A stretch of DNA of 61,892 nucleotides, counting the filler, from Stramenopiles sp. TOSAG23-2 (lineage: Eukaryota), in the NCBI GenBank assembly GCA_900128395.1. It is 14 parts of 14 records of this genome, joined end to end, with 100 filler letters (N's around TTAATTAATTAA, not from the genome) between each part and the next. Parts side by side here need not be neighbours in the genome. Positions count along the whole stretch, not along the records: positions 44,378 to 48,685 come from LT650931.1; 13 more parts are not named here. One strand, given 5' to 3'. Positions 45,991-46,222 of this stretch are shown in pieces. Position numbers and translations under genes: made by a program. The notes below the pieces were generated by a model. That model had not been told where the DNA came from and did not search any database. It worked only from the letters and a program-made list of their open reading frames with translations. Numbering within the stretch: position 1 is the first letter of the stretch; each line of letters begins with the position of its first letter.

Positions 45991-46120
45991 TCGAATTCTG
46001 ATCAACGCGTATAATTTTCTAAGATATACGTTTGTTCCTTCTTTTTTTTTTTTTTTAATGGTTTCAAAATGAGTTATTGAATGGAGAACCATTTTGAAAA
46101 ATTGTTGGAGATTTAATTTT

Positions 46121-46222
46121 GTAGAAAATTACTGTAGTCAATCACTTCATGGTTTCATTTAGTCGAGCTTGCTCGACGCTCTCGAAAGAGAGTTGATAAA
46201 CTATGTTGCTACATATTTCTGT
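46121..46222 (+). ncRNA. Putative structured RNA: long stem capped by a three-way junction with G(CUUG)C and C(GAAA)G hairpins
   Basis: gtcgag-cttg-ctcgac (46162-46177) abuts gctctc-gaaa-gagagt (46178-46193), enclosed by catggttt/aaactatg, tgtag/ctaca and gtagaaa/tttctgt; G-U pairs favour the + strand. Confidence 0.55.

Follow-up and report, generated by a model that had tools for sequence, protein, structure and literature searches.

Academ elements are DNA transposons whose ends read TA...TA, and Kojima reportedly set apart an AcademH lineage among them in 2020. DUF6589 is presumably the Academ transposase region, and we know of no biochemistry for this superfamily. Mutator-like elements make 9-bp target duplications. 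Excerpts of PMC10045372 give the target duplications of AcademH as 9 or 10 bp, and excerpts of PMC3814204 give abortive gap repair as the accepted origin of deleted derivatives. Our literature search, which took in few subscription papers and Repbase Reports, found no description of a one-sided hairpin extension, of a mass of one-ended stubs, or of Academ in the present host group.

The locus that we compare with these systems lies in the window, by which we mean the whole stretch of DNA analysed (61,892 nucleotides, filler included). The host is a eukaryote whose DNA in this stretch is AT-rich (about 30% GC) and whose genome assembly, G000, comprises 32.8 Mb in 9,146 contigs; the public sequencing runs that contain the stretch are mostly marine. 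A first-pass annotation described a Y-shaped RNA candidate here, directly behind a KH gene. We read its two hairpins as the stub that remains from an end of a DNA transposon with TA...TA termini, a 9-bp target duplication and a palindrome on one side only, a reading to which we give a probability of roughly 0.78.

The locus and its neighbours

The Y-structure lies on contig C4769, 67 bases 3' of a 304-aa KH gene, and a convergent gene on its far side ends at 46700. The features of the locus are as follows.

45076..45990, + strand: 304-aa gene with three KH domains; a neighbour only; RNA-library contigs cover it from about 45072
46042..46099, + strand: T15 run and upstream AT-rich hairpin; outside the family; 24 extra bases inside the hairpin in two alleles
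46121..46159, + strand: left flank of the proposed long stem; host DNA outside the family; differs among copies; pairing at chance level
46151..46159, + strand: where the 9-bp target site would be expected; the right side holds no duplicate, 5/9 being the closest match
46160..46192, + strand: probable transposon hairpin-end stub; 33/33 identical to a copy on another contig (L003)
46162..46177, no strand assigned: hairpin 1 of end variant A (X-loop-X'), its fixed part; exact copies: 12 in G000, none in the control
46178..46192, no strand assigned: hairpin 2, the part that varies; 4/29 variant-A stub sites have the sub-variant found here, with an arm beginning GCTCTC
46193..46222, + strand: right flank of the proposed long stem; host DNA; alleles with pair-breaking changes and a 3-base insertion

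The structural description itself was borne out. Two hairpins with tetraloops are present (CTTG at 46168-71, GAAA at 46184-87), the four stems named with them pair base by base, G-U pairs included, and the upstream stem and T-run are found at 46062-71/46090-99 and, as T15, at 46042-56. Read inward, 46160..46192 consists of TA, arm X, a loop, arm X' and a second palindrome Y-loop-Y'; neither the final X arm nor the body of the element described below is present. The same boundaries recur in other family loci and in contigs of public runs.

In the neighbouring KH protein, the second and third repeats carry GKRW and GKKW where GxxG is usual. A paralogue of the gene, 63% identical, is found on C5372, a contig that ends inside it. 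Three further observations concern other parts of the window. A sequence resembling a 5' splice site (AG/GTAAGT, + strand) lies at 46251-46258 and reads GTGAGT in two alleles, and RNA contigs have no intron joint there. Short CG-rich motifs cluster at 46530-46690, past the end of the convergent gene, in surroundings that are AT-rich. The sole Rfam match within the window is a tRNA at 56105-56186 (anticodon CGA, long variable arm).

A dispersed family of one-ended stubs

Exact copies of hairpin 1 number 12 in G000 against 0 in the control, and a 21-base pattern recovered 26 metagenome loci, two of which are alleles of the window site. The copies sit nearly always in flanks with no relation to each other; they have in common the TA start, hairpin 1 and the beginning of the second palindrome, after which their stop points differ. 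Besides the end found in the window (variant A), there is a variant-B end, with 62 exact matches, and 100 at one mismatch against 15 in the control (30 examined), and a variant-C end with 16 short matches (11 examined). Using strict patterns, which exclude decayed copies and sites near locus ends, we counted 64 distinct stub sites (29 A, 25 B and 10 C), and these outnumber long ends by 64 to 11 among the loci examined. The loop of hairpin 1 is CTTG in 26 of the 29 variant-A sites and CTAG in the other 3.

An exact duplication of at least 7 bp was found at 39 of the 64 sites, and one of exactly 9 bp at 24 (expected 0.8; maximum 4 in 2000 permutations), while 19 sites have no duplication. At the 32 sites where the duplication is at least 9 bp, the inserts measure 21-75 bp (median about 30) and the target 9-mers are roughly symmetric, with 45% GC; 28 of these inserts end in A and 22 in TA, against window backgrounds of 0.34 and 0.11. 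Breakpoints fall at positions 21-39 in variant A (29 sites), at 16-35 with one at 57 in variant B (25 sites) and at 36-58 in variant C (10 sites), in all three variants within or beside the second palindrome. Some junctions carry fold-back junk, and at one stub (L258) an inverted, self-templated extension is present.

Stubs bring short GC-rich palindromes into promoters and 3' regions and, at least once, into a coding exon. The coding case is the 33/33 copy of 46160-46192 on C1495, which lies in frame within a long host exon; it was considered as a parent element and rejected, being a stub inside a host exon with no element end. On the minus strand of C1495 (L101:3-2531, L102:4737-9899) the stub stands in a very long host ORF, the frame stays open and residues are added to the protein, in which we recognise by eye ankyrin-like repeats and a channel-like C-terminal part.

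We rejected a library adapter or an assembly artefact, since the stub recurs in diverged alleles and in independent public runs, and other stubs carry site-specific duplications. Elsewhere in the data, about 750 bp spanning a gene start (L220:1440-2960, C4303) are duplicated in perfect inverted form, probably as an amplification or assembly artefact, and exact tandem repeats of 100-190 bp on several other contigs have the same look. The suggestion that the structure might be the terminus of a small mobile or viral element stands in its first half, as the end of a cellular transposon; the viral half fails, the viral contigs showing no match to our three DNA patterns or to the element-related protein P0002.

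The parent element

A few family copies continue into a common AT-rich body. Most long copies are interrupted by contig ends, and one complete copy, 1,659 bp with both ends, is found on contig C7353. The hairpin end comes in three variants, which differ in sequence and follow one plan: TA, X, loop, X', Y, Y', X, then a subterminal core. The far end is simpler; it begins TA(G)TC and carries the common core inverted. Since both ends open with TA(G/A)TC and have the subterminal core in common, the element has the inverted ends of a terminal-inverted-repeat (TIR) DNA transposon, with an imperfect inverted repeat of about 30-40 bp. The core motif by itself marks the family poorly: it gave 175 matches against 26 in the control, but only 2 of the 19 extra sites examined were element ends.

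Six of the 13 hairpin ends that reach the core match one of 15 simple ends on other contigs through an exact 9-mer, where the null mean is 0.0015; no ends pair at 6-8 or at 10-12 bases. Therefore the termini are TA...TA and the duplication is 9 bp, a fixed length, as in TIR DNA transposons, and the modal one among the stubs. At L298 (C1462) and L110 (C3042), an exact 9-mer is held in common with a simple end elsewhere, yet the copy is truncated on its own contig, which may reflect rearrangement, an allele difference or misassembly.

As DNA, hairpin ends fold at -11.5 to -16.2 kcal/mol and simple ends at -0.8 to -3.5. The most stable fold of an intact end is a single long hairpin, X'-Y-Y'-X. 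The two abutting hairpins, or "rabbit ears", appear only where the last X is missing, and are thus a truncation product. Stubs of the simple end are scarce: 13 of 26 matches of a 10-base pattern proved to be element ends, and the 3 short ones among them (2 with a common flank) showed no duplication. Among the long parent elements, none with the window's own hairpin-2 sub-variant was seen.

Coding capacity and superfamily

The complete copy has a 307-aa ORF directed toward the hairpin end. This ORF (a remnant, in L226) is 90% identical over 219 aa to the 455-aa protein P0002, and because it matches part of a longer protein, the complete copy appears to be a deletion derivative. The additional part of P0002 has a single distant relative, and its neighbours by model features come from Basidiomycota and Cnidaria (0.93-0.95), with one cluster (0.93) bearing DUF6589 on 29% of its members.

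No longer relatives of the ORF were found, Pfam held no family match to the ORF, P0002 or P0004, and the DUF6589 profile matched nothing in G000, P0002 or P0004. A MULE transposase profile had no match over the cut-off in G000, which is an incomplete genome, and searches that included P0004 against G000 found no autonomous copy or recognisable transposase between element ends. A weak match to P0002 on C707 runs antisense within a host gene. Single-sequence folding of P0002 reached a pLDDT of 31, which is unusable, and solved structures yielded nothing. The link between DUF6589 and Academ was not found in the one paper naming DUF6589. We put forward an AcademH-like superfamily as a tentative best guess from a weak protein lead, at a little short of even odds. 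If the enzyme is Academ-like, the scars would offer a testable handle on the mechanism of the superfamily and extend its range to a marine microbial eukaryote.

Could the insertions instead be retroelement copies, extremely truncated at their 5' ends during target-primed reverse transcription? The hairpin end would then be the 3' end of an RNA whose sense in the window is the minus strand, and the enzyme would stall in the second palindrome and add untemplated bases. Such a process accounts for the one-sidedness, with one end fixed and the other variable, and for the direction of the ORF, which points to the fixed end, but not for the fixed duplication length or the TA. According to excerpts, Penelope-like elements yield very short truncated insertions (PMC9977147) and have a 30-40-bp tail at one end and inverted copies (bioRxiv 2021.04.23.441226). 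The same preprint, as excerpted, describes the duplications of target-primed insertion as variable, whereas here the length is 9 in 6 of 6 paired full-length ends and modal in stubs. The simple end, moreover, is a stable and distinct sequence common to many copies, and 22 of 32 stubs end in TA.

A search for the enzyme bears on the same question. One reverse transcriptase profile found 9 loci in the incomplete G000, which by eye are DIRS-, gypsy-, LINE- and telomerase-like, and none of them matches an element end; no ribozyme was found among 13 loci. At L138 (C1356) there is an ORF that resembles, by eye, telomerase reverse transcriptase. A 229-codon ORF on the minus strand (L109:371-1057), beside a truncated body copy, has by eye a GIY-YIG-like pattern, which would suit a retroelement, but it has no Pfam match and its placement within the element is only putative. 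We regard the retroelement origin as distinctly unlikely.

The window site and the structured-RNA reading

A second allele of the window site is present in G000 (contig C3635, 98%). The stub is found in all four alleles compared, and neither an empty site nor a full-length allele was found in 4 runs. The window stub has no target duplication (best match 5/9); another stub, with the same hairpin-2 sub-variant, has a 10-base duplication and is present in three public runs. Reverse-complementing the window bases 46145-46154, a short way left of the stub, gives that sister stub's duplication, by chance or as the trace of a rearrangement.

The whole interval folds better than shuffled sequences, with z of -2.08 on the + strand (7/200 shuffles) and -3.22 on the - strand (1/200), and the inner Y at 46148-46205 reaches -3.5 on + (0/300) and -2.42 on - (6/300). 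The claimed preference for the + strand thus holds for the inner Y only, the whole interval folding better on the other strand. The outer two stems are rivalled by an alternative fold in the full interval. When the stub was held constant, a fold at least as good was reached by shuffled flanks in 45 of 500 cases and by genuine flanks taken from other parts of the window in 39 of 500. Because the outer stem is at chance level when the stub is fixed, the fold signal comes from the 33-bp stub; the gain over shuffles exists and is modest, but it belongs to the stub. The structure is real on paper and modest, and its strand-specificity is not clear. Rfam covariance models, at both thresholds, matched no family to it. 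Motifs like those of snRNA, snoRNA, hammerhead and telomere sequences were dropped after inspection by eye.

A rival reading is that the scar of a transposon, along with the DNA on both sides of it, was co-opted later as a structure in the 3' UTR of either the KH gene or the convergent gene. The presence of the stub in 4/4 alleles, with no empty site in 4 runs, would suit co-option, as would the changes at 46156 and 46157, which preserve a wobble pair, and the preference of the inner Y for the + strand. Changes at 46199 and 46208, on the other hand, disrupt pairs, a further allele difference is an insertion at 46206, and in allele L083 a change at 46184 turns the GAAA loop into AAAA and abolishes the GNRA loop. 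No compensatory, two-sided change was found in the stem across the 4 alleles, a comparison of few sequences and low power, so the predicted covariation did not appear. Tetraloop sequences also differ among family variants as well as in that one allele.

The KH gene itself is missing its 5' part in allele L144 and is shortened, with the stub segment inverted, in allele L083; an element tied to this gene is hard to square with truncation or rearrangement relative to the stub in 2 of 4 alleles. In L083, window bases 46076-46281 correspond to L083:1400-1634 in an orientation reversed against the KH gene, with 1.2 kb of different DNA after them, a rearrangement or an amplification chimera. Contigs of two RNA libraries span the KH gene and the stub, which would also suit co-option, but they are strandless, with ends not given, and they extend into the intergenic DNA beyond. 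With the outer stem at chance level besides, we hold co-option to be somewhat less probable again than the retroelement.

The proposed module of KH protein and 3'-UTR RNA is not supported, because the hairpins are a dispersed repeat in unrelated flanks, with varying loops, and pairing in the flanking stem does not exceed chance. Neither the long outer stem nor the placement behind the KH gene is more than incidental. Viewed as RNA, there is nothing unusual here: the scar of a transposon imitates a structured RNA. It is a caution for RNA screens in protists with AT-rich DNA, whose non-coding sequence holds dozens of such GC-rich double hairpins.

Terminal hairpins and a short direct repeat (X occurring twice) at one end could also suggest an element of the HUH type, Replitron- or Helentron-like, in which the hairpins would be recognised and termination would be imprecise. 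Excerpts of PMC10288648 report that Replitron-1 makes duplications and has fuzzy ends, and that Replitrons occur in stramenopiles; by the same excerpts, Replitron duplications are variable and the termini direct repeats, whereas our family has inverted ends and a duplication of fixed length. As a rule, HUH elements leave no duplication, and the ORF lacks by eye the Rep motif set that marks Replitrons and has no family match. The chance of an HUH-type origin is slim.

An independent, undescribed structured RNA with no tie to mobile DNA could claim the real tetraloops and stems, the z of -2.1 to -3.5 and the lack of an Rfam match, but its probability is negligible, as the hairpins are 33/33 identical to a copy within an unrelated coding exon and terminate a longer element, the complete end of which adopts another fold.

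A possible mechanism

Returning to the hairpin-end stub of a DNA transposon, established knowledge suggests a DDE-type reaction because the stagger is fixed, the targets are symmetric, the ends are inverted and the TA is retained. The transposase would cleave the target with a 9-base stagger. Most events would then see DNA synthesis, with the host flank as primer, copy the hairpin end and stall or run off within the second palindrome, the strand at times snapping back on itself. The copied strand would then be joined to the other flank, which would retain only the last 1-2 bases (TA) of the simple end. The route may be abortive gap repair after excision or an aborted insertion, and the data fit both; the latter would be a copy-in event in which the hairpin shields one end. 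At the window copy, the right-side duplication may have been lost or may never have formed.

We think it unlikely, yet worth stating, that these insertions represent a protist Academ-like lineage whose movement passes through a replicative or single-stranded intermediate. The hairpin end would there serve as the entry and the second palindrome as a programmed stop or cut, so that the usual product would be a one-ended stub of 20-40 bp flanked by a 9-bp duplication instead of a complete copy. The X-loop-X'-Y-Y'-X plan, kept in three end variants, would then be a functional signal. One-ended, duplication-flanked stubs with three end variants mark where the reaction or its repair fails, and they may show how a little-known element moves.

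Comparison with known systems

The likeness to AcademH consists of the 9-bp duplication, the inverted ends and the protein lead to a DUF6589-bearing cluster. The differences are that no helicase or full transposase was seen here and that the host is a marine microbial eukaryote, where AcademH hosts are animals or fungi. Mutator-like elements resemble the family in their 9-bp duplication and in the many stub-family copies seen, though not counted, just upstream of genes; they differ in that no MULE domain scored over the cut-off in G000 and in that the inverted repeat here is only about 30-40 bp and imperfect.

Other classes agree less well. The hAT elements make 8-bp duplications, and here there are 0 pairings at 8 and 6 at 9. 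Helitrons and Helentrons are defined by having no target duplication, and the stub family has one. MITEs keep both terminal repeats in uniform copies, while these stubs are one-ended and vary in length and junction. Penelope-like elements of the Chlamys and Naiad kind share very short one-ended insertions and a 30-40-bp extension at one end (bioRxiv 2021.04.23.441226 and PMC9977147, both in excerpt); their duplications, in the same excerpts, are variable where ours are fixed, and the stub family has a stable second end and no linked reverse transcriptase that we could find.

The nearest products of a known process are the deletion derivatives of Ac/Ds, P, Tc1 and Mutator, in which, by excerpts of PMC3814204, a duplication lies on both sides of a shortened element and template switching occurs at junctions. 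Those derivatives keep both termini and are often mobile, whereas a stub retains 21-75 bp from one end and, from the other, 1-2 bases. The stubs also differ from them in breaking at a built-in palindrome and in outnumbering the long copies.
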